From NCBI RefSeq assembly GCF_032444005.1, contig NC_091285.1, positions 15,500,001 through 15,564,000 of the forward strand: a stretch of DNA of 64,000 bases, given 5' to 3'. The stretch is from Ranitomeya imitator (lineage: Eukaryota). The notes below the pieces were generated by a model that worked only from the letters and a program-made list of their open reading frames with translations, was not told the DNA's origin and did no database searches. Of the stretch, positions 30,001 through 63,011 are shown piece by piece (position 1 is the first letter of the stretch; each line of letters starts with the position of its first letter). Position numbers and translations under genes: made by a program.

Positions 30001-33000
30001 TATAATACAGGATGTAACTCAGGATCAGTAATGTAATGTATGTACACAGTGACTGCACCAGCAGAATAGTGAGTGCAGCACTGGAGAATAATACAGGAGG
30101 TAACTCAGGATCAGTAATGTAATGTATGTACACAGTGACTGCACCAGCAGAATAGTGAGTGCAGCTCTGGGGTATAATACAGGATGTAACAGGATCAGTA
30201 ATGTAATGTATGTACACAGTGACTGCACCAGCAGAATAGTGAGTGCAGCTCTGGGGTATAATACAGGATGTAACTCAGGATCAGTAATGTAATGTATGTA
30301 CACAGTGACTGCACCAGCAGAATAGTGAGTGCAGCTCTGGAGTATAATACAGGAGGTAACTCAGGATCAGTAATGTAATGTATGTACACAGTGACTGCAC
30401 CAGCAGAATAGTGAGGGCAGCTCTGGGGTATAATACAGGATGTAACTCAGGATCAGTAATGTAATGTATGTACACAGTGACTGCACCAGCAGAATAGTGA
30501 GCGCAGCTCTGGAGTATAATACAGGATGTAACTCAGGATCAGTAATGTAATGTATGTACACAGTGACTGCACCAGCAGAATACTGAGCGCAGCTCTGGAG
30601 TATAATACAGGATGTAACTCAGGATCAGTAATGTAATGTATGTACACAGTGACTGCACCAGCAGAATAGTGAGTGCAGCTCTGGAGTATAATACAGGATG
30701 TAGCTCAGGATCAGTAATGTAATGTATGTACACAGTGACTGCACCAGCAGAATAGTGAGTGCAGCTCTGGAGTATAATACAGGATGTAGCTCAGGATCAG
30801 TAATGTAATGTATGTACACAGAGACTGCACCAGCAGAATAGTGAGTGCAGCTCTGGGGTATAATACAGGATGTAACTCAGGATTAGTAATGTATGTACAC
30901 AGTGACTGCACCAGCAGAATAGTGAGTGCAGCTCTGGAGTATAATACAGGAGGTAACTCAGGATCAGTAATGTAATGTATGTACACAGTGACTGCACCAG
31001 CAGAATAGTGAGTGCAGCTCTGGAGTATAATACAGGATGTAACTCAGGATCAGTAATGTAATGTATGTACACAGTGACTGCACCAGCAGAATAGTGAGTG
31101 CAGCTCTGGAGTATAATACAGGATGTAACTCAGGATCAGTAATGTAATGTATGTACACAGTGACTGCACCAGCAGAATAGTGAGTGCAGCTCTGGAGTAT
31201 AATACAGGATGTAACTCAGGATCAGTAATGTAATGTATGTACACAGTGACTGCACCAGCAGAATAGTGAGCGCAGCTCTGGAGTATAATACAGGATGTAA
31301 CTCAGGATCAGTAATGTAATGTATGTACACAGTGACTGCACCAGCAGAATAGTGAGTGCAGCTCTGGAGTATAATACAGGATGGATTTCTTTCACTCTCC
31401 TTATTGCCTGTTCTTGCACTTTCCAGGGTGTGACGCACAAGGTGTCTTCCATGCCTGAGGACTGGAGAAGTGGTGACGGCGTCTACAAGCTCCACTACTC
31501 CCATCCGCTGTGCGGTGACAGCTCCACAGCGCTGGTCTGTGTGCCAATGGGCAAACTTCTGATCATCAATGGTGAGCCCGGTATTACAGTGAGGGAGATG
31601 TCTCTTCTTCAGTCGGCTCCCGAGCCGCATTCACAACTCCACTGTGTCTTTTGTGGAGTGTCTTGCTGCGTTGTTATATACCATAGTCTGTGGGATCACT
31701 AGTAATCGGTTGTGGCTTGTGATGCAGCTTTAGATGTGAGTGGAGTACGGAGTCTCGCGTCTGATCTTACATTACTCTGTCTTGTCTCTTTGCAGCCACT
31801 TTAACCATCGGCGGTGAGCTGAGGTGCATGAAGAGGCTGCAGATTCTCATCGATTCCTACATCTCCTTCCCGCAAGAAGGTAAGAAAGTCACGGCAGGAC
31901 TGTACAGACTGGACAAAGGCCACATAACAGCCCACAGGGACCCCCTTCTCTGTACAGCGGCTGGTCTTGCTGTGATGCGAAACTGCGCTGTGAGCCAAAT
32001 AGATTGTGCCAGCTTCTCCTTCTACCCTCTCACAGCATGAGTCTCACAGGCTGAAATGACTCCTCATCTTCTTTCTCTCACAGCAGGAGTCTCGCAGAGA
32101 GGCTGTAATATGACTCCTCATCTTTCTCTCACAGAGAGGCTGTAACATGACTCCTCATGTTCCTTCTCTCACAGCATGAGTCTCACAGAGAGGCTGTAAT
32201 ATGACTCCTCTTGTCTCACAGCATGAGTCTCTCACAGTGGCTGTAATATGACTCTTCATCTTCCCTCTCTCACAGCATGAGTATCACAGAGGGGCTGTAA
32301 TGTGACTCCTCTACCTTCACCCCCTCTCACAGCATGAGTCTCACAGGCGTAATATGACTCCTCATCTTTTTCTCACAGAGAAGCTGTAACATGACTCCTC
32401 ATGTTCCTTCTTTCACAGCATGAGTCTCACAGAGAGGCTATAATATGACTTCATCTTCCTTCTCTCACAGCATGAGTATCACAGAGGGGCTGTAATGTGT
32501 CTCCTCTACCTTCTCCCCCCTCTCACAGCATGTGTCTCACAAAGAGGCTGTGATATGACTCCTCATCTTCCTTCTTCTCCTCCCCCATCCCCCCCCCCCC
32601 ATTTCACCCAGTGACTCATGTCTGTAACACCATCCCTCCTCCTTCTCTTTTTTTTTTCCCCCATCCCACAGCAAGAGTCTCAAGCAGACCGTGAATGAGA
32701 AATTCCTCTGCAGCTGCATCCCCCTCCTCCCTCTCTATCTGCCCTGAGACCGCAGTCATCATCACATTATACTACCAATGCAAATCACTTTCCTTTTAGA
32801 CCGTTCTGTGGCCTCGGTGTACAGGGACTTGCAGAAGTTATCACGCCTCTTCAAAGATCAGGTGGTGTACCCTTTACTTGCTGCTACTCGGCAAGGTAAG
32901 AGCTCAGCGGCGCCCCCATAGGGGACTGGGGGGAGGGCTGCAGCTAGTGGATCTGACCATTTCGCACTCCTCCATCCCACAGCCCTGGGTCTTCCCGATG

Positions 33001-33805
33001 TCTTTGGTTTGGTGGTTTTGCCCCCGGAGCTGAAGCTGCGGATCTTCCGTCTTCTGGACGTTCGCTCCATCTTGTCGCTTGGCGCCACATGTAAAAATCT
33101 GCACGCGGACGTCGAAGACCCTTCCCTGTGGAGGTTCCTCTACCGGCGAGATTTCAAGGGTAAAGCGATGGTGTTATGTAGTGTCTTATACTCCACTCCC
33201 ACACAAAGCTGCGTTCTCAGCTCTGCAGGATTCCTGAGGACTCTCAAGCATTCTAACTGCAGCTTTGGCTGTGACTAGAGTATAAGACGATCTTACTCCT
33301 GATGCGTTTGTGCTTGATAAGTAACCGTTGTCTCTGTTTATAATTAGATGGCAGCGAACGAGACCCCCACCACACAGACTGGAAGGAGGTAGGTGCCCAC
33401 TTCCCTATCCTCACACCCCTCTCCCCCCGGTCACACAGTGACTGACCCCTTAACAGACGCCGCTCGTCTCCTTCTTGTGTCTTGCAGCTTTATAAGAGTA
33501 AGCAGACTCAGCTCAGAGTCCTGCGCCTTACACGCCATCCCTACAACCCGGACTACCCACCGTTTCGCCCCGACCCTTTCCATCCTGACCAGTTGCCACC
33601 CAACTATCCCTACCCGCCGGGCATCATCGGGGGCGAGTATGACCAGCGCCCCACGTTTCCATTTCCTAGAGATCCCCTTTCATTATTAAACCCGCGCAGA
33701 CCTTACGACCCGGGACTTTTTCAGGTCCCCAGGCCCCGGTTTAACCCCCCGTTACCCGGTCATTTTGGTGAATCGTCACGTTCAAGACGGGGGCCTTTCT
33801 TGTGA
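27053..33805 (+). CDS. FBXO7: F-box only protein 7 (Ubl, FP domain, F-box, proline-rich C-terminus), complete
   Basis: Nine GT-AG exons: 27053-27174, 29142-29352, 29426-29596, 31427-31571, 31796-31879, 32800-32895, 32983-33159, 33348-33388, 33488-33805. Total 1365 nt = 454 aa + stop. Starts MKLRVR; F-box [26 protein letters not shown]; PI31-like [12 protein letters not shown]. Confidence 0.95.
27195..27825 (+). repeat. 25-bp GC-rich tandem repeat, FBXO7 intron 1
   Basis: Unit gaggagcgcgggggccggaggatga. Confidence 0.95.
27826..28785 (+). repeat. 38-bp GC-rich tandem repeat, FBXO7 intron 1
   Basis: Unit cacaggctgaggggccgcgtccagcggagtccgggggc. Confidence 0.95.
29628..31382 (+). repeat. 86-bp minisatellite array, about 20 copies, FBXO7 intron 3
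   Basis: Same unit as 6001-13305. Confidence 0.98.
32025..32560 (+). repeat. Degenerate tandem repeat, FBXO7 intron 5
   Basis: Recurring ctctcacagcatgagtctcacagagaggctgtaatatgactcctcatc with variable unit length. Confidence 0.85.
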
Positions 33806-36800
33806 AAGAGATCAAGTGCCCCCCTATCGTATTCGGGACCCTGGACCGATCCTACTGAGGTACGCTGGCCAATCGGAGGCACTACTACTCCCAGGAGAGG
33901 ATGGGAGGTCGCACCGCTCCTGTTTATCCTCTTCAGATGGAGTTTATGTTCTCATTTACTAATTTGTTAAAGGGAAAGTCCACCGAGGAGCAAACTGCCT
34001 TATTTACAGTTTACGTTTTTTTTTTCCCTTTTGAAGGGGGCTAGTAACAGCTGAGCCCCTTTTAATAACCCAGCGGGGTCATACCTAGGGGTACACTTAC
34101 TTCACTTAGTACATTATTGTACCCATCATCCAAAATTTTGAAAAAATTCTGGTGACTGCAATTTTCCCCCAATTTTTCACTCCCTTTGTCTGGCTCTATG
34201 GGGTCCAGGAAGCTGAGATTTGGGGGGTGGTTTGATGGGGTCCTTACACTGCCGAGCTGCTGGGAAGTTTGGTCGCTGGCAATTAATTCCTTAACGGGCA
34301 TCTCGTCATATAGCTCAACTTCCTATGATCGTTATTAAGTAGACCGCCCTCCATTTTTTTTTTCTTTTATGGCTTGAAAGCATCTAAAATAAAAGATGGA
34401 GCGAGACAGTGATTAAAAAAAAAAATCTACCGTTTTGCGTATACAGCTATTATGCAGAACTATGCATCACTGTGGTAACAGACTACAAACAAAACACCCC
34501 ATGTAGTCCGATCCTCCCCCAACGCCCTTCCAACTGTTCTCTTCCTGATGGAACGACAACTCCCATATTTCAGAGGGAGGGGCAGAGGCGAGGCAGCGAT
34601 GCTCACAAGATCTGACTACATGGAGTTTGTAGTCTGTTTCCATAGAGACAAGTTGAACCTAAAACTGAAATCTGTCCATCACAAAGTTATACTTTTTTTT
34701 TTTTGTGTGTGTGTGCGTTTCCATCAATAGACGATCAGCATAAGGTGGGGTAAAGCTCTCCGGCTGGTGTTAGATTGTAAGCTCTTTGGGGCAGAATAAG
34801 TTGGAAATATTTCAGATTTCAGTTGAATGAAGTTATAAAATGGCTTTTTACATTGTTTGTTGCTAATTTTGTCCTATACTGAGGACAATAATAATTAAAA
34901 AAAAGAAAAAAAAGTTGCTTATAAAAAGTTCCAGACTCTAATATCTTTAATTACAGTTGTGTCTGAGCTAGTGGGTAGAAACCAGCTGCTGTGATGTGTC
35001 TCCCATATACAACACACAGACATGAGGGATTCCTGCTCTCTTATCTAGCACATGTTCAGACCCAGCAGCTGCACAGATGATATAATACAGCAGTGTGGCT
35101 GTGAATCCAGCTGTAAGATAAATTAAAACACGGGGACATTATACAGCAGTACTGAGCAGTGTAGCTGTGCATCCAACACTGGGATGAGCTACAGCCCTTA
35201 CAATGCTAGTAAACATCTTCTCGCTTCTCCCCCCTCCCTCCCTCTCTGCTCTCCCTCTTGCTCACTGCTCTTCCCCCCCCCCCTCGCTCGCTGCTCTCCT
35301 TTCCCGCTCGCTGCTCTTCTCCCCATTCTCTTTTGCTGCTTTTTTCAATCTCTAGTGCCATCAATAAACGGCTTTGACCTGATTCCTCAGTGGGCAGCCT
35401 GTCTTGTATACAGCTGGATGGATTCGAGCCGTTTTTTAGAGTGGAGAAGTGGCTCATAAGTGGAGAAAGACAGTTTTTGTTTTTTTCTGAATTATATTGT
35501 ACTGTTGATTTTATGCAAAATTTGTTAAAACAAAAAAACATTTAGGCAGCTTTTATTTATTTTTTTTCTACTATCATCAAAATAAACACAAATACACAAA
35601 ACGTAAAGCAGGAAGATCCTGGAGTAAAACTGTGGAATCCAAGGCCACATCTTCCATCATCCACCCCCACCTTTTTCAATTACCCAAAAATCGCCTTCTC
35701 AGTGCTCCTTACTTGTCCAGAGTCCGGCTCTACCTCCACTTTCCAGGATTAGTGAAACATAGCTGCCATACCTGTTTATCGATTGTATCTTCAGTTCAGT
35801 TCCATTGAAGTAAATGAAACTGGACTGCAATACCATTAAAAACCTGTAGACAGGTGGGGCGCTGTTTCTAGAAGAAAACTCATGTTTCTATAACCCTGGA
35901 CAAGCTTCTCTAAAGGAACTGAAATGAAGCTGTGATTTGGAGAATGAGGAAAATAAATGTAAATTCTACAGGTGTACGAATTCAATAGTAGAAGATGGTA
36001 TCAAATACCCAGTTCTAAGTGCAAGCTGCAGAATCCCAATAAAGAACATTTTCTTCTTGATATATACATTGCTATGGGTTTGGGTTTCTTTTTTTTTATT
36101 TTTATCATTTGCATGTTGGTCTTCAAGCCAAGATGTGAAAAGTGGGAAATCTCTCTGAGGACATGAGTTAACGACTCACAGTATATGGCTCTGTTCTTGG
36201 TCTCTATATTACTTGAAGACCCAAAGGATGGGAAGCATTGATGACGTAACCTGATGTAACCGAGAAATTTCACATTTTTATGAATTATCTAAAATTCAGA
36301 TTTCAAGACTTGATTTTATATTTCTGTAATCAGCACCAATAATCCACAAATTTAGATCAGGGGACAGTAATGGGGTCCGACTTAACTCCAATTGAGAACT
36401 TTACCTGAAAATTCAAACTGCATAGAATGTCCTCATCTCCCATATGTTGGGGCATATGGACACAAGTGGATCAATGGCTTTTGTGGGATACATAAACCAA
36501 TTCAGACCTCTTTGAGGCCCAAAGGATGGAAGCATAAATTGTAAACCTGATTAAACTGAAAAATGTTGCATCTTGTATGCGAGTTAGATTCTTAAGACGT
36601 AATTTTATGCTTTTTTATTCGGACTCCCATGACAGCACACGAGAGAGGGGATCCGCCCTTAAGGAACAGGAAACCTACAGATACAAAAGGGCGGCACCTC
36701 TCCCCATGCATCAGTTGGTTTCCTGTTCCTGAAGGGACTGGATGCCTATAGAAACTACAGAAGTCCAGGCCGGCCGGACCGATTCTGGTGGCGAGAGGGT

Positions 36801-37287
36801 CTCCCACTTCGGCCGGTGCGGGTACCTGAAGTAGTCACGGTGGCCCTGGCAGGGCGGCACGGCGGTGACTAGGCAGCGAGGAGCGGTCGCCAGGGGGTGT
36901 CCGGTCTCCGGGGCCAGCGTCTGGTAAGTCGCCCTTCCCGTGGGCTGTGGGTCTCTCTGGAGCAGGGGGGAGCGCGGCGGCATCTGGGGGCGCCGATCGG
37001 ATCGTAGCTGGCTGGCCTCGGCGTTCCACGAGAGCTGCAGCGCTGACAGGAAGCGCTGTAAGCTGTGGTGACGTCGGGGGGCGGAGCCGGCGACGTCTTC
37101 CGGATCGGCGAGCTCCTGCGCATGCGCGGGGGCTCCAAGATGGCGGCGCCCACCGGAGATCATGCCGCAATCCCTCCGGAGCGACGATTGATTCCCCACA
37201 GCTGCGGGGGGGGCGGGAAAATTAAACAAACAAGCTGGGCAAGGTGCGCTGACCGAAGGAGGGGCCTTATAAGGCGGCTCCAGCAGC

Positions 37288-38888
37288 ATGTTCCCGGGTT
37301 CTGGCTCCAATTTACTGAAAATGGATTCAGATCAGGATCAGCAGGTTGTGCTGCTGGAACAAGCATCCCAGAAACCCAAGGAGAAGGAACATGAAAAAAG
37401 GAGCGATGGTTCGGGCCGCAGAAGCTCCTCCAGACAGGGGTCTGGAGGGTCAGTCAAAAAGGATCCCCCTCATGCTTCGGTATTTCTGGGTGTGAGCAGC
37501 CACTGGTAAGTGATCTTCGAGAAAGTTCACTTAGTGACTAGTCTCCCCTCATGTGTTTTATGCAGGGAAGGAAAAACGTCAGTAAGGCGAAGCATAGGGA
37601 ATGTGCCATCTGCGGGGTTCCCTTGCCTGACTCACACCCTAAAAAACTATGTGACCCCTGTATCCAGCAGACGGTGAGGTTCTGGAAGGAGGGGAGGGGG
37701 TATAGCATGTAGATTTTACACTCTAGTCTACCTTACTTATCCCCGTAGGTAGCCGAAGAATCCTCCTCTATTACGGCCAGTCTCAAGGAGATGATTAGAA
37801 TGGAGGTTAAGGAGTCCTTTAAAAACCTTTCACAGTCAGGAGGTTCTAGGCAGAGAACTGAGTGGGCATCTGATTCGTCTGTGGAAAAGGACAAGTCCGA
37901 AGAATCAGACAATTCAGCAGCATCATCCTCCTCTTCGGAAGAAGACGCTGCTCGGTTTTGCCTACCCCTAGAAAGGATAGACAAATTGGTAAAGGCGGTC
38001 AGAGGCACAATGGGTATATCGGAACCCAAGCCTCAACTATCCAAAGAACAAATGATGTTCAGTGGATTGGAGCAAAAGAAGCGCAGAGTGTTTCCTTTAA
38101 ATGAGAAAATACAAGATCTTATTAATAGGGAATGGAGGAAACCTGAGAGAAAAGGCTCCTTACCACCTGCGCAAAAACGCCGATACCCTTTTGATGACCC
38201 AGCAGTAGGTAACTGGGAGAAAGCACCCAAGCTGGATGCAGCAATTGCCAAGGTAGCTAAACGATCTTCTCTCCCATTTGAAGATATGGGAACACTTAAA
38301 GACCCCCTGGATAGGAAAGTGGATACCTTCCTGAAGGGAACCTGGGAGATGGCAGCTGGCTCCTTAAGACCTGCGGTAGCTTCAACCTGCACGGCAAGGT
38401 CAATGATGGTCTGGCTGGACCAGTTGGAGACCCAATTAAAACAAGGGGCCTCTAGAGAGTCCATTCTCTCAGCATTACCTGTAATCCAGGAGGGGGCGGC
38501 TTTTTTATCAGACGCCTCAATTGACTCCGTAAAGTTGGCAGCTAGAGCAGCAGGACTTTCTAATGCTGCAAGGAGAGCCCTATGGCTGAAATGCTGGCCG
38601 GGGGATATGCAGGCAAAAGCGAAGCTCTGCGCTATCCCTTGTAAAGGCGAATATTTATTTGGGCCTACCCTGGATGAACTCCTGGAGAAAGCAGGAGATG
38701 ATAAGAAAAAGTTTCCCAACCTGTTCAATCCATACCGTCGTCCCTTCAACAAAAGAAGGTTCAACCGGGGAGGAAAGCGAGCCTTTTCACCAGGGAGAGA
38801 TCGTCCCAGATGGGAGGATAGGCGAAAGCGAGGTACAGGTCTCATGTTTCGCCGTAACCAGACGGAAAATAAAAAACAAGACCAATGA
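37288..38888 (+). CDS. DIRS ORF1 gag-like protein (LAP2alpha-like domain), probably spliced
   Basis: The main exon 37749-38888 has VFPLNEKIQDLINREWRKPE...APKLDAAIA...LKDPLDRKVD, typical of vertebrate DIRS ORF1. Putative upstream exons are 37288-37491 and 37566-37673 (CAIC-x12-CDPC). Confidence 0.8.
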
Positions 38889-40781
38889 CTAGCAATTCCA
38901 GTGGGAGGGAGACTATTGCATTTCTCGGCAGAGTGGTCGAAAATCACAAACAGCGTTTGGATAAAAGACACTGTTTCCCATGGTCTCAAGCTGGAATTTG
39001 TTCATATTCCACAGGACAAATTTAGGTTAACACCCTGGCGCTCATCTCCCACTGAACAATTCGCCCTAGAAGAGGAAGTGAGGACTCTCTGTTCCAAAAA
39101 TGTTTTGGTAGAAGTGCCGTATTCTCAGGCAGGGGAAGGGTTTTACTCTCCCCTGTTCCTAATCCAGAAGCCTGATAAATCTTACAGGACCATTATAAAT
39201 CTTAAGGGTCTCAATAAGTTTTTGGTGAAACATACTTTCAAAATGGAGTCCATCAATTCGGCAATAAAAATGCTTTTCAACAACTGTTTCATGGTAGTAG
39301 TGGATTTGAAAGATGCCTACTATCATGTACCCATTCATGCTGATTTCCAACGATACCTGAGGGTAGCGATACTAATGGGGGGTAGGATTCGACATTTTCA
39401 ATTCAGAGCGCTCCCCTTTGGGATCACCTCGGCACCTAGGGTGTTTACTAAAATAATTGCGGAAGTTATGGCGCATTTAAGAGAGTCAAATATCCTTATA
39501 GTCCCCTACTTAGACGATTTCCTCATTGTAGGTAACTCGGTAGATCATTGTCTGTCACAATGGGAGATTGCTAAAACCAAACTAGAACGGTTGGGTTGGA
39601 TCATAAACTTTGAAAAATCTAAATTACAGCCCCTAAATGTTCAAAAATTCCTGGGGTTAATGTTGAATTCAGTGACACAGCAGTGTCTCCTCCCTATAGA
39701 GAAAATGGACCAAATTCAGAGTTTTGTATTAAGAGCAATCAATACACCTTCCATGACACTTAGGCAAGCAATGTCTCTACTTGGGTCACTCACATCTTGC
39801 ATCCCAGCAGTTAAGTGGGCTCAGTTCCACACCAGGTCCCTACAAAATGAAGTCCTGTTCCATGACAGAGCCTTAGGAGGCGCATTGAATGGAAAATTGA
39901 CATTGAGGCCGATAACATTGAATTCCCTTAGATGGTGGCTAGATAAACAAAATTTATCAGCAGGGGTTCCCTGGATGATAGATGTCACCCACGTGATAAC
40001 CACGGATGCCAGCTCTTCAGGGTGGGGAGCCTATATGGGGGACATGGTGGTCCAGGGACAGTGGGAACCCTTCACAACATTTTCATCAAATCAAAGAGAG
40101 TTGTTGGCGGTTGAACTGGCTGTTAAAAAATTCCTCGTATATCTGCAGGGCCAGCACGTCAGAATTCTGTCGGACAACAGAGTGGCGGTCGCTTACATAA
40201 ACCGGCAAGGGGGAACTCGTTCCGAAACTTTAATGCAGATCACGGATCGGTTGTTCCAGGTGGCAGAGCTCAATTTTCTATCTTTGACAGCTCTTCACAT
40301 CAAAGGAAAAGAAAATGTGGCAGCAGATTTCCTCAGCCGAAATGTGTTAAAACAGGGAGAGTGGTCTCTCAACGAGGACATTTTCAATCTTGTCGTCCGC
40401 AGATGGGGTCAACCAGTGGTGGATCTATTCGCCACCAGAAACAACAGAAAAGTAAAACTTTTTTGCTCCCTAAATCCCAGGGAGAATCCCCTGGCGGTAG
40501 ACGCGTTTCTCATGAAATGGGATTTTCCACTAGCCTATGCTTTCCCACCACTGAACCTGATACCTCTAGTGGTGAGGAAAATCAGGGAGGATCGAGCGAA
40601 AGTCATCCTTATCGCCCCCTTTTGGCCCAGAAGAACCTGGTTTGCCTGGCTCAAGACAATGTCTGTAGCGGTCCCCTGGGTACTGCCAGAGATCCCGAAC
40701 TTGCTTTCGCAGGGACCGATCTCCCATCCACAAGTGACGGGGCTCCATTTGACGGCATGGTGTTTGAACGGTCACTATTAG
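38889..40781 (+). CDS. DIRS ORF2: reverse transcriptase, RNase H and DNA adenine methyltransferase-like domain
   Basis: RT: RTIINLKGLN, DLKDAYYHVPI, LPFGITSAP, YLDD. RNase H: TTDASSSGWG, RELLAV, SDN, NVAADFLSR. MT-like: VDLFAT...YAFPP. In frame with ORF1 directly after the TGA at 38886-38888. Confidence 0.95.
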   Translation, partial: LAIPVGGRLLHFSAEWSKITNSVWIKDTVSHGLKLEFVHIPQDKFRLTPWRSSPTEQFALEEEVRTLCSKNVLVEVPYSQAGEGFYSPLFLIQKPDKSYRTIINLKGLNKFLVKHTFKMESINSAIKMLFNNCFMVVVDLKDAYYHVPIHADFQRYLRVAILMGGRIRHFQFRALPFGITSAPRVFTKIIAEVMAHLRESNILIVPYLDDFLIVGNSVDHCLSQWEIAKTKLERLGWIINFEKSKLQPLNVQKFLGLMLNSVTQQCLLPIEKMDQIQSFVLRAINTPSMTLRQAMSLLGSLTSCIPAVKWAQFHTRSLQNEVLFHDRALGGALNGKLTLRPITLNSLRWWLDKQNLSAGVPWMIDVTHVITTDASSSGWGAYMGDMVVQGQWEPFTTFSSNQRELLAVELAVKKFLVYLQGQHVRILSDNRVAVAYINRQGGTRSETLMQITDRLFQVAELNFLSLTALHIKGKENVAADFLSRNVLKQGEWSLNEDIFNLVVRRWGQPVVDLFATRNNRKVKLFCSLNPRENPLAVDAFLMKWDFPLAYAFPPLNLIPLVVRKIREDRAKVILIAPFWPRRTWFAWLKTMSVAVPWVLPEIPNLLSQGPISHPQVTGLHLTAWCLNGHY

Positions 40782-41791
40782 TGGGAAAAGGCTTCTCTCC
40801 AAACTTGGTGGAGACGCTCCTAAAGAGTAGAAAGCAAGTAACTACGAAAATCTACTCTAGGACTTGGAGAAAGTTCTTGTCTTGTTCAAAGTTTAATATC
40901 CAAGACGGGGTGCCAGTACAACAAATCCTAGAGTTCCTACAGAAGGGGTTCGAGTTGAAACTCTCTCCTAGTACCCTTAGGGTACAGGTCTCAGCTTTAG
41001 GTGCCCTGTTTTCCTGTAATATAGCGAATAACTACTGGATAGCGAGGTTTATGAAGGCAGTTAGTAGATCTACACCACTGCATAAAGACAGAACAGTTCC
41101 ATGGGATTTAAATTTAGTTCTGTCCTCTCTAACTAAACCCCCCTTTGAACCTCTGCAGGAGGCCTCGATCAAAATGTTGACACTTAAGACAGCCTTCCTG
41201 ATCGCCATAACCTCAGCTCGCAGGATAGGGAATATACAGGCACTTTCCAGAGCTCCTCCATACACTGAAATCTTGTCAGACAGAGTAGTCCTTAGACCAG
41301 ACCCAGCATATCTGCCAAAGGTGGCGACACGGTTCCATAGATCACAGGAAATAGTTTTGCCGTCCTTTATTCCTAATCCCTCTAATCCTAAAGAGCAGGA
41401 GCTTCATACGTTAGACGTCAGGAGATCTCTTCTTCAGTATATTTCAGCTACTGATAATTGGAAGAAGGATGGGGCACTGCTTCTTTCCTTCCAAGGTCCA
41501 AAGAAAGGATTTAGAGTATCGAAATATTTACTGGCTAAATGGATTAGGGAAACTATCTCTCTAGCTTATACAGCAGGTGGGGGGCCAGCTCCGCAGAACC
41601 TAAAGGCACATTCCACCCGGGCCATGGCGTCATCCTGGGCAGAAAGATCTGGAGTGTCAGTGGAGCAGATATGTAAGGCGGCCACATGGTCATCCCCTTC
41701 CACTTTCTTTAAACACTATCGGTTGGATTTGGGGTCCTCCTCTGATCTTTCCTTTGGGTTAAGGGTGCTACAATCTATAGTCCCTCCCTAA
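40361..41791 (+). CDS. DIRS ORF3 tyrosine recombinase
   Basis: Catalytic motifs ITSARR, AHSTRA (H-x-x-R), ATW and FFKHY. Overlaps ORF2 in another frame (40361-40781); an alternative ATG lies at 40757. Confidence 0.95.
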   Translation: MVSQRGHFQSCRPQMGSTSGGSIRHQKQQKSKTFLLPKSQGESPGGRRVSHEMGFSTSLCFPTTEPDTSSGEENQGGSSESHPYRPLLAQKNLVCLAQDNVCSGPLGTARDPELAFAGTDLPSTSDGAPFDGMVFERSLLVGKGFSPNLVETLLKSRKQVTTKIYSRTWRKFLSCSKFNIQDGVPVQQILEFLQKGFELKLSPSTLRVQVSALGALFSCNIANNYWIARFMKAVSRSTPLHKDRTVPWDLNLVLSSLTKPPFEPLQEASIKMLTLKTAFLIAITSARRIGNIQALSRAPPYTEILSDRVVLRPDPAYLPKVATRFHRSQEIVLPSFIPNPSNPKEQELHTLDVRRSLLQYISATDNWKKDGALLLSFQGPKKGFRVSKYLLAKWIRETISLAYTAGGGPAPQNLKAHSTRAMASSWAERSGVSVEQICKAATWSSPSTFFKHYRLDLGSSSDLSFGLRVLQSIVPP

Positions 41792-43362
41792 GGTAGCTTA
41801 CATCTCTGTAAATCTCTCGTGTGCTGTCATGGGAGTCCGAATAAAGCATTAAGCTACTTACTGGTAGCGGCATTTTTCGGAGGCCCATGACAGCACCCTT
41901 AGTTCCCTCCCTATTCACGTGGGGGTAGCACTTCCTGATATGTATATAGCGTAATATGTAAATCTCACGTATGGTGTCTTATTACAATAATGGGTTATTT
42001 TGTTTCAAATGTATATAATGTATATATTGTATATTTGTGTACCACTAACCGCGGCAGTCCTCTCAGGCTCTGAAATACAACTGATGCATGGGGAGAGGTG
42101 CCGCCCTTTTGTATCTGTAGGTTTCCTGTTCCTTAAGGGCGGATCCCCTCTCTCGTGTGCTGTCATGGGCCTCCGAAAAATGCCGCTACCAGTAAGTAGC
42201 TTAATGCTTTTGGCCAAAATATTGAATCTGATCTTAACATTTGTAATCTCTAAATTATTGCAAGGCCAATGTCTAAGGTACAGTAATGGGGTCTGACTTG
42301 ACCCAAGCCCATTATTGTTCCTTGATATTCAAAATATACAAACCCAACTCAAGTGTTTTTTTTTTTTTACCAAAGCCAGAGTAATGTGTAAAGTATTATT
42401 ACGGGCTATTGTTTTTTAGGTTAATATATAGTTGTGTTTTAGGAAGACACAATTTTTGGGGAACTACATGCACTACAGAAAAACTACCAGAAGCCATGTT
42501 GTACCTTTATATGGATTTTTCGTGGCGGGAAGACTTATTGGTAAACATAAACATAAGTCGCAATGACTGGAATGGCTTCAAGTTTTTGCATAAGTTATTG
42601 AGTGTAGGGGGGCGAGGAACAAGGTTTTTCTGGGTGGTTGAGGAGTATGAGATGGGTTGATGGATTTGAATGGCTCTAACTGCGCTGTGCAGCATTGTTG
42701 ATATGCCTGAGGCAATGGCAGCATAGACAGGATCGAGTATCAAGCATTGGTAAGGGTCGGCTTCACTTAATATTTGGACTACAGAGATCCGAAGTCGCGT
42801 AGAGAAGTTGAATACGAATGTTTTCTGGACTTAACTGCAGTAAGGGTCCGTGGTAAGATGGGCTACATGTTCTAGAAAGTCTTAGTCTGAAGCTAAATGC
42901 CAGTCTCTCCAGAACATTCCATGGTCTTCATCGGTTTTGGGTTCCTGAGGATGAGGGTTGAGCACCACAGGTACGAGATATCCGAACACATACTCATGCT
43001 GGGTAAACTGTAGATGGGTGGGGGGGACACCACAGGAAATATCTGGAAGGTTAGAAAACTGGAGATGATTCCACCAAGTTTAGGGATCTTTACTAGGTTT
43101 CAGGCTTTGACTCCCAACTAGTTACAAACATTCAAGAAGTTGAGGAACCATTGAGGGATGACCGAAAGATGACCAACTGTAAGATGTGGTTGGAGTTGGG
43201 GAAATATTCTATACAGACGTTTTTATGATAATCTTCTGGTAGTACAGAAATGTATCTGCATGATCCAACAGAATAAGGTGTCGTGATAAGGTCACACTTT
43301 CATGTGTTTGGGTGACTTTAGGAAGAGCAAAGCTCAACCGAAGAAAATATGTGTTTATTTAC

Positions 43363-46300
43363 TTAGTCGGAGAACAGGCTTGCAAATGATTTTCTCAGGT
43401 TGCGAATAGTTTCCGCTTTAGCTTCATCCTCATTTCCAGAGCTTCGCTGCGATGGATCCGAGATATTAAAGTTGTTGGTTAGTGACTGCGATTTACTGCA
43501 AAATAAACATATAAAAAGTCATATAACTACTATAATACTGCTCCTATGTACAAGAATATAACTACTATAATACTGCTCCTATGTACAAGAATATAACTAC
43601 TATAATACTGCTCCTATGTACAAGAATATAACTACTATAATACTGCCCCCTATGTACAGGAATATAACTACTATAATACTGCCCCTATGTACAAGAATAT
43701 AACTACTATAATACTGCCCCTATGTACAAGAATATAACTACTATAATACTGCCTCTATGTACAAGAATATAACTACTATGATACTGCTCCTATGTGCAAG
43801 AAAATAACTCCTATAATACTGCCCCTATGTATAAGAGTATAACTACTATAATGCTGCTCCTATGTACAAGAATATAACTACTATAATACTGCTCCTATGT
43901 GCAAGAATATAACTACTATAATACTGCTCCTATGTACAAGAATATAACTACTATAATACTACTCCTATGTACAAGAATATAACTACTATAATACTGCCCC
44001 TATGTACAAGAATGTAACTACTATAATACTGCTCCTATGTACAAGAATATAACTACTATAATACTGCCCCTATGTACAAGAATATAACTACTATAATACT
44101 GCTCCTATGTACAGGAATATAACTACTATAATACTGCTCCTATGTACAAGAATATAACTACTATAATACTGCTCCTATGTACAAGAATATAACTACTATA
44201 ATACTGCCCCTATGTACAAGAATATAACTACTATAATACTGCCCCCTATGTACAGGAATAGTACTGCTGCCCACAGTATTATGGCGGTTTTCAGCATATA
44301 TCGGTGACACACGACTCACTTGAGGTGCGGATGTGGCGCTGGCTGGGTCTTTGCTGTTGCTCCAGGTGGAGCCTGTTGGTTCTGCGCCTGCCCTTGTGCT
44401 GGAGGTCTTGGCTGTTGGGGGGATGGAGACTTAGTGGGGGTCTGGCCTGGAGGTGTTCCACTCGCAGGTCTTGGGAGCTGGGGAGAATTTGGAGACCTCT
44501 GAGGCTGTGGCGAGCTCGGCTGGGAAGTCTGGGTGGGCTGCTGTCCCTGTGGAGAAAGCCTTTGCTGTTGAGGGGCTGCTGTCCTGGGAGAGGGGGCACC
44601 CGGTGCTGGACGGACGCCACCTGTACAGAAAGACATACCGTAATTTAGGTTAATTCTGTAGAAAATAAATCTGATTTATTCCCATCTTCCCTTTTATTCA
44701 GTTAGTTTGGAGATGATTGTCCAGACTGGATGCTATAGCAGCAAACCCTCAGCTGTGGCATGTAAAAGTTTATGCACCCCTGGCCAAAATGTCTGTTATT
44801 GAGAACAGTTACGCAAATAGATGAAATGATCTAAAAGGCCTAAAGTTACAGATGAGACATTTCCTTTTGTTTTTTGGCAAAAAATATATATTGTCATTTT
44901 TTAAATTTTAAAAATTACAAAAAGGACGATGGATTGATGCAAAAGTTTGGGCACCCTTGGAGATTTAGGTGCTCAGATAACTTAGATCAAGGTCTCACAC
45001 CTTAATTAGCCAGTTAGTTATGGCTTGTTCACCATCATCATTCGGAATGGTCAGGTGATGAAAATTTCCACGGTTTATAAAGCCCAGCCTCCTCTAACCT
45101 TGTGCCAATAAACAGCAGCCATGGGTTCTTCTGAGCATCTGCCTAACACTGTGAAAATGGTGAAAGTCACAAAGCAGGAGAAGGCTATAAGAAGAGAGAG
45201 TTTTCAAGTTGCCCTTTCCTCAGTTCGAAATGTAATTAAGAAATGGTAGTTACCAGGAACAGTGGAGGTCAAGATAAGGTCTGGAAGACCAAGCAAAATA
45301 TCAGTGAGAGCTGCTCGTAGGATTGCAAGAGAACAAAATCAAAACCTCCGAGTGACTGCAAAAGACCTTCAGTAAAAATTCATGAGACTGGATTTGTGAT
45401 CATTGTTTTACTGTTCAGAGACATCTGCACAAATATGGCCTTCATGGAAGAGTCATCAGAAGAAAACCTCTCCTGCATCCTCCCCATAAAATTCAGTATC
45501 AGACGTATGCAAAAGAGCATCTAAACAAGCCTGATACATTTTGGAAACAAGTCCTGTGGACCGATGAGATAAGAAGTTTTTGGCCGCAATGATCAAAGTT
45601 ACAAGTATGTGTGGAGAAAAAAATGGCACAGAGTTTCGGGAAAAGAACATCTCACCAACCATTAGGCATGGTGGAGGATCAATCATGCTTTCAGGTTGTG
45701 TCGCAGCCAATGGCGCGGGGAACATTTCACGGGTGAAGTGAAGAATGGATTCAATAAAATGGATAATGATCCTAACCACACGTCACAGTCCACAAAAGAC
45801 GACCTCAGAAGGCTCAAGCTGAAGGTTTTACAATGGCCCTCACAGTCCCCCGATCTGAACATCATTGAAAATCTGTGGATAGACCTCAAAATAGCAAAAC
45901 ATGCAAGACGACCCGGGACTCTCACAGAACTGGAGCAATTCTCCAAGGAAGAATCATATAAAATGTAAAAGATTAAAAAAAATTTTTTTTGTCTAAAATA
46001 CAAAGGGAATGTGTCGTCTTTAAATTCAGGCCTTCTAGAGATCATGTCATCTTCAATTTGCTTAACTGTTCACAATAACAGTAATTCTGACTAGGTGCAC
46101 AAACTTTTACATGTCACTGTATATAAAGGTCTGTAATAGAGCATTACCTGCTATGACCAGCAGATGTCACCCGTGTACCAGAACATATTCCTGATGTTGC
46201 CTTGTTGGTGGGATAAAGGGGAACCCGGGCAGCGACATCGCCCCCTTGTGGAGGAGTTCTGCAGGGCTTCTGCAGACCTGTTAAAAGTTTACCTTGCGGG

Positions 46301-49300
46301 GAAGGTCTTGGTTGAGCTGAAGGTGGAGCGCCCCCCGCTCCTGGTGGTCCCGGCTGGGGCTGCATCTGTGGTTTGATCGCCTGCGGCTGCATCTGTTGCG
46401 GCTGGGAGAGAAGAGATGGAGTTTTTCATGGTCACTGTTGTTTTTCACCTTCTGGGCACAATCCGGGGTGCCCCTCACCCTCTGGAGTGGCACAAGGCCA
46501 GACTGGCACTGAAAATGAGGTATACACACAGTGTCGGGTACCAGGCCTCATAGGAGGGCAATTGCTAGGTTTCTTTAATAAACCGCCCCTTTAAGGTAGA
46601 TTAAAAAATGTGAAAACCGTTCTTAGATATTTTTCTTTAAAGCTGAGCTCTGACAACCGACAACCTCCTGCTTTCTGATGTCAGGGTCGGATCTGAATAT
46701 ACCTGATTTCTCTGACTCGGGGCTGCCGGAGATTTCATCAGGACGTGCTCTGTCATTCTAGCCACCACCAGATCGGCCACGAGCTGTCGGTCCTCCTCCA
46801 CGTGTTCTCCGATCAGCGGCATCGAACTGTCCATCACCTGGAGAGCAGGAGACAGAAAAAATGACAATATTCCTATCTCTCATCTGAGACTAAAAAGTAA
46901 AAAAAAAAATGTTTGGAAACCGTCGGCAAGTTGCTGTTGACAGATCTTTTTTCCTTTAGAATGTTTCTGAAAACTGTAAATTGACGTCCACACGACCCAT
47001 AATTAATACTTATTAATAAAAATCACAATCTGAAGTGGAAAGTTCACAAAAACATGCTTGGAAACTATCAGCAAGTTGCTGTTGACAGATCTCTTTTCCT
47101 TAGAATGTTTCTGGGTCTCTGAGAACTGTGAATTGACATCCACACAACCCATAATTAATATTTATAAAAATCACATAAGCTGAGACTGAAAATGCAAAAA
47201 CCGTGCTTGAAAACCACCAGCGAGTTGCTGTTGACCGATCTCTTATCATTAGAATATTTCTGGGGCTCTGAGAACTGTTAATTGACATCCACATGACCCA
47301 TGATTAATATTTATACAAATCACATCATTTGAGACTAAAAATTCACAAAAACATGCTTGGAAACCGTCAGCAATGTTGCGGTTGATAGATCGCGTCTCCT
47401 TACAAAGTCTCTGGGTCCCTGAGAACTGTAAATTGACATCCACATGACCCATAATTAATACTAATTTATAAAAAAAAATCACATCTGAGGCTAAAAGTTC
47501 CCAAAAACATGCATCAAAACCATCAGCAAGTTGCTGTTGGCAGATCTCTTGTCCTTAGAATGTCTCTGAGAACTCTGCATTGACGTTCACACAACCCATA
47601 ATTAATATTTATTCCTGCTTGTTGATTGTTTCCATGCAGATTTTCACAGTTGTGGCCTCTACATGCTGACTGTTTCCCTTCATCCTTGTATGATTGCGGG
47701 TTTTTGTGGTACTTCTGACGGTAATCTAGCACTAATAAAAAGGGTCTGTTGTAGCAGTTCTGCCCCTGAATGGAAATTATGTGCAGTTCCAAACATGGCC
47801 ACGAAGACAAGAGTGGCGCTGCTCGCTCCTTTACTAATTATTACTAGGAAAAGCGGTAAAATAATAATGAACAGGAAAGAAGTGACGATATGAGCGGCTC
47901 ATTAACGATGACAGCGTGACCCGACATCCACGGAAGCATCTGGTGCCGCCATCATTCCTCCTGCACAGCGTCACACCGCGACCAGAAATAGGGGCCGCGT
48001 CACCGATGGCCTCATGTCACACCAATAAAAGGAAAAGTGTCACGTTCAGTGGAAGGACTAGAAATGTAGTTCAGGTAGGCGGGGCCATAGAACGAGAGGT
48101 GGAGCTAAAACTATAGAAGGGGTGGAGCTAAAACTAGGAGAGGTGGTGCTAAAAACTAGAATGGGTGTGGAGCTAAAAACGAATGAGGGAAGGAGCTAAA
48201 AACTAGAATGAGGGGTGGAGCTAAAAAAGCTATATAAGGAGGGGTGGAGCTAAAAACTAGAATGAGGGGTGGGGCTATAAAAGCTATATAAGGAGGGGTG
48301 GAGCAAAAACTATAATGAGGGGTGGAGCTAAAAACTATAGAATGAGGGGTGGAGCTAAAAACTATAGACTGAGGGGTGGAGATAAAAATTATAGAATGAG
48401 GGGTGGGGTTATAAAAGCTATAGAATGAGGGGTGGAGCTAAAAACTAAAATGAGGGAAAGAGCTTAAAACTAAAAACTGGGGCTATAAACTATAGAATCG
48501 GGTGGTGAAAACTAGAATGAGGGATGAGGCTAGAAACTAAAATGAGGGGTGGAGCTAAAAACTATAGAATGAGGGGTGGAGCTAAAAACTAGAATGAGGG
48601 GTGGAGCTTAAAACTATAAAATGAGGGGGGAGCTAAAAACTATAGAATGAGGGGTGGAGCTAAAAATAGAATGAGGGGTGGAGCTTAAAACTATAAAATG
48701 AGGGGGGAGCTAAAAACTATAGAATGAGGGGTGGAGCTAAAAACTATAGAATGAGGGGTGGAGCTATAAAAACTAGAATGAGGGGTGGGGCAATACAAAC
48801 TAATCATGGCACACAGAAGGCGGTATTATTTGGAAGCTCCCTTTGTTTTAGGCATTAAATGCTGGTAGTGAGTGGGTAACTTATCAATACATTGTCTTGG
48901 CACTATATGGCGGTATTATGCAGCCTATTTAAGGGAGTATTATGTATAGATGCTGCACACTGGGAACAATATGGCGGTATTATGTGACCGGTATATAACC
49001 GATATTATCTCGGCACTATGTTGTGGTGTTATACGGCCCAATAGAAGGGATCTTATTTGGTTCTGCATATAGATAGGAAACTACATGGCGGTATTATAGG
49101 GAAGATACATGGCAGTACTTATTGGGGCACTGTATTGCAGTATGATGTAATTTGGTTCTGCAGACTATATTGTGCTATTGTTTAGAAACTATTTGGCGGC
49201 ATACGTGGACTGTATATAGCAGTAATATGTGGATTATTTAAAGGGTGTAGGTTTCGATACTGCATATTATTTAGGTATATTAAGGTTGTATATTACAGTA

Positions 49301-61841: not shown

Positions 61842-63011
61842 CAGTACAGACCGAAAATTGGACACACCTTCTCATATAAACATTTTTCTGTATTTTCATG
61901 ACTATGAAAATTGTACATTTACACTGAAGGCATCAAAACCATGAATTAACACATGTGGAATTATAGATTCATTCAAGAGAATGCCAAGAGTGTGCAAAGC
62001 AGTCATAAAGGCAAAAGGTGGCTACTTTGAAGAACCTAGAATATAAGACATAATTTCAGTTGTTTCACACTTTTTTGCTAAGTATATAATTCCACATGTG
62101 TTAAAGGGAACCTGTCACCCCGTTTTTTCAGATTGAGATATAAATACTGTTAAATAGGGCCTGCGCTGTGCGTTACAATAGTGTATGTAGTGTACCCTGA
62201 TTCCCCACCTATACTGCGAAATACATTACCAAAGTCGCCGTTTTCGCCTGTCAATCAGGCTGGTCAGGTCAGGTGGGCGTGGTGACATCGCTCTTTTCTT
62301 CCCCAGCTTTCCGTTGGTGGCGTAGTGGTGTGCGCATGTCCAAGTGCCGAATCCACTGCGCGCACGTGAAGAAACAGCGCGCGATCTGCGCTATTACCCC
62401 TGTCATCGGTGGGGGCAGCCATCTTCCTGGGGCCGCGCGTACGCAGATGGAGTGCTCTGCTGCACGGGGCTTCAGGAAAATGGCCACCGCGATCTCCATC
62501 TGCGCACGCGCGGCATCCCGCGGCCATTTTCCTGAAGCCCCGTGCAGCAGAGCACTCCATCTGCGCACGCGCGGCCCCAGGAAGATGGCCGCCCCCACCG
62601 ATGACAGGGGTAATAGCGCAGATCGCGCGCTGTTTCTTCACGTGCGCGCAGTGGATTCGGCACTTGGACATGCGCACACCACTACGCCACCAACGGAAAG
62701 CTGGGGAAGAAAAGAGCGATGTCACCACGCCCACCTGACCTGACCAGCCTGATTGACAGGCGAAAACGGCGACTTTGGTAATGTATTTCGCAGCATAGGT
62801 GGGGAATCAGGGTACACTACATACACTATAGTAACGCACAGCGCAGGCCCTATTTAACAGTATTTTTATCTCAATCTGAAAAAACGGGGTGACAGGTTCC
62901 CTTTAATTCATAGTTTTGATGCCTTCAGTGTGAATGTACAATTTTCATAGTCATGAAAATACAGAAAAATCTTTAAATGAGAAGGTGTGTCCAAACTTTT
63001 GGTCTGTACTG
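61842..63011. mobile_element. Non-autonomous Tc1-type element (about 370 bp excluding the nested MITE)
   Basis: TA duplication at 61840-61841 and 63012-63013; long TIRs cagtacagacc...ggacacaccttctcat / atgagaaggtgtgtcc...ggtctgtactg. Confidence 0.9.
62105..62902. mobile_element. 798-bp foldback MITE (T2/Kolobok-like)
   Basis: TTAA duplication at 62101-62104 and 62903-62906; termini AGGGAACCTGTCA...TGACAGGTTCCCT; arms of about 380 bp are near-perfect reverse complements around a short spacer. Confidence 0.95.

Follow-up and report, generated by a model that had tools for sequence, protein, structure and literature searches.

DIRS1-like retrotransposons have been described in Xenopus (Gazolla et al., PMC9210276), and according to the available text of that paper they carry inverted terminal repeats (ITRs), an internal complementary region (ICR), a LAP2alpha gag, RT/RH/MT domains and an overlapping YR frame, as does the element described here, in which the MT and YR assignments are putative. 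However, three plain ORFs are described for the Xenopus elements, whereas gag of the present frog element lies in three pieces. The main text of that paper, as available, has 0 occurrences of the strings 'intron' and 'splic', and the supplements could annotate ORF1 exons. LAP2alpha itself derives from DIRS1 ORF1 (PMC4495291, in the portion available). For DIRS-1 of Dictyostelium, the accessible sections of the source (PMC7192593) report that a spliced marker RNA is copied into intron-free insertions, that the element needs the ICR and that its RT acts in trans. Because a spliced RNA can be copied in this way, any retention of introns by a DIRS element needs explaining.

Other retroelements make use of splicing in several ways. 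As far as the available sections of the sources go, BARE1 (PMC3735527) and EVD/Ty1-Copia with its short GAG RNA (PMC5580714) dedicate a spliced RNA to Gag, and BARE (PMC3735527) also uses two promoters and keeps the RNA for translation apart from that for copying, both of which resemble the arrangement proposed below. In the Copia elements, however, splicing truncates gag-pol so that Gag alone is made, whereas here splicing would assemble Gag from three exons, and unlike those elements the frog element is a tyrosine-recombinase element of a vertebrate. Penelope-like elements (PMC8557442, in excerpt) keep spliceosomal introns, and their 5'UTR intron overlaps an internal promoter, as a candidate intron at 36924-37201 would in our element; however, they differ from it in subclass, ends and integration, and their introns lie mostly outside the ORF. 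In retroviruses and in Cer1 of C. elegans (PMC10309623, likewise in excerpt), which makes spliced accessory RNAs, spliced and unspliced RNAs coexist and the unspliced form serves as the genome, but Gag is translated from the unspliced RNA, whereas here full Gag cannot be made from the unspliced RNA. Copia elements already provide examples of spliced Gag RNAs and of separate RNA pools, and Penelope-like elements of intron retention; at this locus, splicing is needed to build Gag.

An intron-split gag is odd, since elements that copy through RNA should lose introns. Our literature search found no report of introns in DIRS elements; Goodwin and Poulter (2004) and Poulter and Butler (2015), which lay outside the search, may reportedly mention introns in some recombinase retroelements. 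In the available text of an overview and of fungal and kinetoplastid papers (PMC3266345, PMC3783388 and PMC6681497) the word 'intron' occurs 0 times, and the available text of PMC5718144, PMC5890265, PMC13465315, PMC9341512 and PMC8547959 holds nothing on DIRS introns. Outside Dictyostelium, little is known of how DIRS elements express Gag, Pol and recombinase or select the RNA that is copied. The case described here would add a vertebrate to the short list of intron-keeping retroelements, together with a possible intron gain inside a retroelement. It would also explain many 'LAP2 alpha-like' genes and host-transposon fusion models in frog annotations, and why the N-terminus of these Gag proteins would go unnoticed in descriptions based on ORFs. 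In addition, stop-containing gag introns would form a built-in marker, by which spliced and unspliced RNA, cDNA and new insertions are distinguishable by PCR.

We analyzed a window of 64 kb (the whole stretch of DNA considered here; positions are given within it) from contig NC_091285.1 of the poison frog Ranitomeya imitator. It contains a complete DIRS1-like tyrosine-recombinase retrotransposon on the + strand (36614-42210), as are all of its features listed below, and the element was recognized by ends with 100% complementarity to an ICR, by long open frames and by domains. The left inverted terminal repeat (36614-36740) has a 126-nt arm that is 91% complementary to 42055-42180, and the right repeat with its extension, delimited by complementarity, spans 42055-42210; the two repeats are non-identical, as is usual for DIRS1-like elements. 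The ICR (41813-41896) is 100% complementary to both element ends, including the first 33 nt of the left repeat. Its halves (41813-41845 and 41843-41896), each 100% complementary, overlap by 3 nt at 41843-41845, in agreement with the DIRS1-like definition, which includes ICR halves overlapping by 3 bp (available text of PMC3266345). As in the ORF1 of DIRS1-like elements, the last gag exon encodes a LAP2alpha domain (PF11560, E 5.5e-18), and a fold search with the predicted model of a homologue returned LAP2alpha (2v0x) as its only matches at E<0.001. The pol frame (38889-40781) directly follows the gag TGA in the same frame and contains the RT and RNase H expected of this group (RVT_1, E 3.8e-21; RNase H, E 1.9e-7), followed by a weak Dam-like methyltransferase match (E 0.025, below the curated cut-off). 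The tyrosine recombinase frame (40127-41791) is open for 554 codons and overlaps pol; its Phage_integrase match is below the curated cut-off (E 0.025), and its position and its overlap with pol are as in DIRS1-like elements. Because the long frames are uninterrupted, this copy appears to be young. The nearest named proteins in the homologue search came from poison frogs, with Ranitomeya models at most 99% identical over short stretches. No second copy was found elsewhere in the 64-kb window, and scans of metagenome, prokaryote-genome and viral contigs returned no locus related to the element. Judged by its sequence, the element is an intact DIRS1-like retrotransposon.

An earlier note on this DNA had proposed that gag is split by two spliceosomal introns around a zinc-finger exon. 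Its three segments, their phase-0 boundaries and the gap lengths of 74 and 75 nt were confirmed on the sequence, as were the in-frame stops TAA 37507 and TAG 37710, to which TAG 37746 can be added. Exon 1 (37288-37479, possibly extending to 37491) encodes a low-complexity Q/S/R/K N-terminus homologous to the N-termini of the proteins P0046, P0033 and P0040. Exon 2 (37566-37673) encodes a C-x2-C-x12-C-x2-C zinc finger that is 72% identical to P0046 (in Pfam, a weak DZR_2 match, E 0.006, below the cut-off), and exon 3 (37749-38888) encodes the LAP2alpha domain, with its first Met 14 codons in, at 37791. Intron 1 (37480-37565; phase 0, 86 nt, or 74 nt if the donor is at 37492) is a GT..AG interval whose junction was set by homology and whose acceptor recurs in other families. 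Intron 2 (37674-37748; phase 0, 75 nt) was placed by splice signals and homology and contains two in-frame stops. If unspliced, the frame from ATG 37288 ends at TAA 37507, and the finger frame ends at TAG 37710, with TAG 37746, the acceptor itself, behind it. Removal of the introns restores a reading frame that is conserved in protein alignments, and the full-length spliced Gag would have ~479 residues comprising a low-complexity head, a C4 zinc finger and the LAP2alpha domain.

We ranked the 286 GT sites and 432 AG sites of the element using a vertebrate weight matrix. The donor of intron 2 (37674) ranked 3 of 286, and the acceptors 37565 and 37748 took places 7 and 14 among the 432 AG sites; sites scoring as high as this donor and the two acceptors make up 0.05%, 0.125% and 0.25% of positions, respectively. 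Intron 2 and the acceptor of intron 1 agree with the U2-type GT..AG consensus, but the donor of intron 1 has the GT and is otherwise weak: the two in-frame candidates ranked 34 (37491/92) and 79 (37479/80) of 286. They flank a much stronger out-of-frame donor after 37505 (37503-37511, intron start 37506, phase 2), which had been pointed out previously and here ties for rank 1 of 286. By arithmetic, joining this donor to both later exons gives a product that ends at TAG 37750 after 109 codons. The donor lies 60 nt from the intron-1 acceptor, and because this spacing is at or below the usual vertebrate minimum intron size, the two may not pair; the tuning of Gag output by donor choice that the earlier note suggested is conjectural. 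Use of an AAG at 37570 with the strong donor would restore the frame, and this candidate was rejected on its acceptor score (-6.08). For the 25-codon gap of intron 2, GT..AG ends were found in one of nine in-frame placements tried, which was the placement given by homology. By eye, the neighboring F-box gene has an intron of ~87 nt (32896-32982), so introns of this size appear normal for the host.

We then compared the inferred junctions with those in homologous proteins; the spliced homologues are gene models, so that this evidence comes from protein junctions and not from reads. Exons 2 and 3 adjoin without a gap when aligned with the RefSeq protein P0046. The C4 finger was present in 21 of the 50 matches of the homologue search, for which we measured the spacing between the last finger cysteine and the next conserved helix motif. 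This spacing was 15 residues, as in the spliced product, in 16 of the 21 (13 by pattern and 3 by eye), 14 residues in three and 18 in one, and one homologue was unalignable; spliced or near-spliced spacing was accordingly found in 20/21 and the unspliced spacing of 40 residues in 0/21. In a looser test, 43 of 78 representatives with the finger had kept a glutamate at the matching position. Between the acceptor stop and the first Met lie 14 codons whose encoded residues are conserved and that can be translated only after splicing. In the predicted model of the homologue P0005, the finger has a pLDDT of ~80 and the junction lies inside a helix (residues 93-103), from which it follows that, in this model, the finger exon is not a free-standing module. 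Six other gene models (P0036, P0040, P0120, P0257, P0258 and P0259) join differing upstream sequence exactly at the start of exon 3. Among contig-called frames, the finger runs straight into the body in 10/12 and 8/10 members of two clusters; read from these frames, intron 2 is absent or spliced in both lineages. The 12 matches of a profile search included no spliced protein of the exact same family, and a homologue search with the finger exon alone gave no candidate. For the Gag model (pTM 0.31, low confidence overall), no capsid-like structural match was obtained.

For intron 1, exon 1 aligned with the N-termini of sister families, and the RefSeq models P0046 and P0051 cross to the finger exon at the position matching 37479, whereas ab initio models continue there into a valine. 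The same intron-1 start is read in P0049, which comes from another locus. The earlier note had preferred the donor at 37491/92; since the sister-family models (models, not reads) cross to the finger exon at its second choice, the alignments make 37479/80, and hence an 86-nt intron, the more likely estimate. The intron-1 acceptor appears, from protein comparisons, to be widespread among frog families. For example, in Phyllobates P0110 the exon 1 of its cluster-mate P0008 is replaced by a hydrophobic, pyrimidine-coded stretch with a terminal Gln, the Dendropsophus model P0271 (versus P0127) has a host exon fused at the same point as the acceptor, bullfrog-cluster proteins read through at the acceptor in another phase, and in models of other frog families a break falls immediately ahead of the finger. 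However, the read-through signature was found in 25 of 157 finger proteins, corresponding to 9 of 86 distinct contexts, and was not enriched across all homologues (9/86 contexts versus a control of ~8%), as would be expected if most entries are spliced models. In the contig-called families the signature is partly selected, in that P0153 and P0232 (two of four families) were chosen after it had been seen. Taken together, we consider it probable that the two introns are real, with donor 1 at 37479/80. Separately, we observed that in the gene models P0271, P0165, P0138, P0177 and P0036 DIRS gag has unrelated exons attached at precisely the acceptor of intron 1 or intron 2, which suggests that these gag acceptors trap host splicing or mislead annotation.

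Sequencing data were examined for 4 of 18 runs, none of them on record as RNA; the four, one per study, were used as assembled contigs of guessed or unknown RNA status and unknown strand. All four runs covered the element with contigs ~99% identical to it that carried fixed differences and kept both spacers; three runs had contigs that spanned intron 1 without a break, and one run had such contigs across intron 2. A splice joint at either intron was found in 0/4 runs, although contigs drop minor forms and the RNA status was guessed, and no intron-less near-identical form was present among the contigs of these runs. Passive copies in host transcripts would look the same in such contigs. The proposal of spliceosomal introns around a zinc-finger exon is supported by protein homology and splice signals, whereas the contigs of the four runs did not provide the joint. 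The only joint listed (41322-41668, in a single contig) connects GG..CA ends and does not represent splicing. Among the variants listed (40 of 231), 9 of 11 gag differences were synonymous. In exon 1, two of the three listed were synonymous and a 9-nt deletion keeps the frame, whereas a 1-nt deletion at 37714 falls inside intron 2, so that, among the listed variants, the frame is preserved in exons and disrupted in intron 2. In three of the four runs the left repeat (36614-36740) had a contig depth far above that of the element interior, with related but different loose ends, which may come from shorter or sister elements sharing termini.

Upstream of gag, a CpG island at 36800-37200 (+ strand; GC 0.68-0.72, CpG o/e 0.84-1.09) contains clustered promoter-like motifs, from which we infer an internal promoter. 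The cluster spans 37069-37147, with five motifs within 80 nt, and lies 330-400 nt inside the left repeat; by their consensus sequences, we take the motifs to be CRE (37069), a GC box (37079), ETS (37098), NRF1 (37118) and YY1 (37137). The YY1 and NRF1 motifs are each the sole exact match in the window, and in 20000 Markov simulations YY1 appeared in 31, NRF1 in 50 and both together in 0. Similar motifs with one mismatch in an unrelated palindromic element are a point against the promoter reading. This element (62100-62910, ~800 nt) is near-perfect and GC-rich, has arms with one-mismatch YY1- and NRF1-like motifs, and looks like a foldback MITE. A speculative 278-nt 5'UTR intron (36924-37201, + strand; the donor ties for rank 1 of 286, the acceptor scores 3.84) would remove the promoter motifs; no joint for it was seen in the contigs of the four runs.

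We propose that full-length Gag would be made only after the host spliceosome removes the two phase-0 introns (37480-37565 and 37674-37748), and that the introns would survive retrotransposition because the element makes two RNAs. An mRNA from the internal CpG-island promoter, starting near 37070-37150, would be without the left terminal repeat and would be spliced and translated. Such an mRNA would be unable to complete ITR/ICR-dependent copying and, because under the DIRS model it is without the left terminal repeat, it could be spliced without intron loss. A second, longer RNA, with its start in the left repeat, would serve unspliced as the template for copying by trans-acting proteins; if it used donor 36924 and acceptor 37201, the promoter would be lost, as in the case of the Penelope 5'UTR intron. 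The analysis shows the anatomy, the exon boundaries set by homology and the presence of the spacers across the family, and to these the proposal would add splicing itself, two starts and a division of labor. As a whole (intact element, splicing-dependent Gag, two starts and division of labor), we regard it as probable on balance, if modestly so. The separate spliced and unspliced RNA pools suggested in the earlier note are thus plausible, and the internal promoter signature suggests how they might be kept apart.

Alternatively, the introns might be real while all RNA starts at a single promoter in the left repeat, with splicing made inefficient by weak donors and paired RNA, and with preferential packaging and copying of the unspliced fraction, for example through an intronic packaging signal; packaging of the unspliced RNA is the model of the earlier note. 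The same homology evidence applies to this model, the dominance of unspliced contigs agrees with it, and in the predicted fold the weak donors are base-paired to exon 2, and the purine run of intron 2 to that intron's acceptor tract (only at z = -1.97; 4/100 shuffles as good). However, given the behavior of Dictyostelium DIRS-1 (available text of PMC7192593), one full-length pool should shed its introns unless their loss is selected against, and the motifs of the internal CpG island are left unexplained; we consider this model rather unlikely. It is more doubtful still that the spacers are never spliced in the life cycle, with Gag being translated from Met 37791 (364 residues) on unspliced RNA, the finger being unused or encoded in a short frame of its own, and the joined proteins being prediction artefacts. 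Residues upstream of Met 37791 are conserved, the three homology-fixed boundaries all have good splice sites, and contig-called frames of other lineages join the finger and the body (the two clusters noted above), which together make this reading quite improbable, even though the contigs of the four runs lack a joint, several sister-family RefSeq models (the P0001 cluster) start at the equivalent Met, and a peptide with the finger alone could be initiated at the in-frame ATGs 37551 and 37560. Finally, although some distant lineages are without intron 2 or show it spliced, the view that this copy alone carries the gaps, as indels or insertions, in a family with one continuous ORF1, is largely refuted and very improbable, because ~99% identical contigs with fixed differences keep both spacers in 4/4 runs, which excludes copy-specific indels for the family, and because P0049 reads the same intron-1 start at another locus.

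The account with two starts could be extended further, and this extension is tentative, being in our view possible rather than probable. An intron before the Gag finger would have been carried across ranid, hylid and dendrobatid hosts by a frog DIRS1 lineage, of which a sub-lineage would have gained the second intron, in the helix, while active. The spliced, replication-dead mRNA of the internal promoter would supply all proteins, and the left repeat would give rise to a genome RNA that is non-coding cargo, an inversion of the retroviral plan; the strong 5'UTR donor would strip the promoter from any spliced genome RNA.

Pol continues in frame after the gag TGA, and its first Met, at residue 119, lies inside the RT match. 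Because it has no usable start codon of its own, Pol probably also depends on processed RNA, through readthrough of the gag stop or another splice. The UGA-CUAG context at the gag stop (38883-38892) resembles a readthrough signal; however, this reading is weakened by a variant at 38891, inside the putative motif, in 4/4 runs. With respect to its surroundings, the element lies between the 3' ends of an F-box gene (32800-33805, + strand) and a synapsin gene (43370-46879, - strand), which we take to be FBXO7 and SYN3, and is ~1.2 kb past the synapsin stop; antisense read-through could supply unspliced RNA. An 86-bp tandem repeat forms large arrays, in either orientation, at 5860-31300 of the window.
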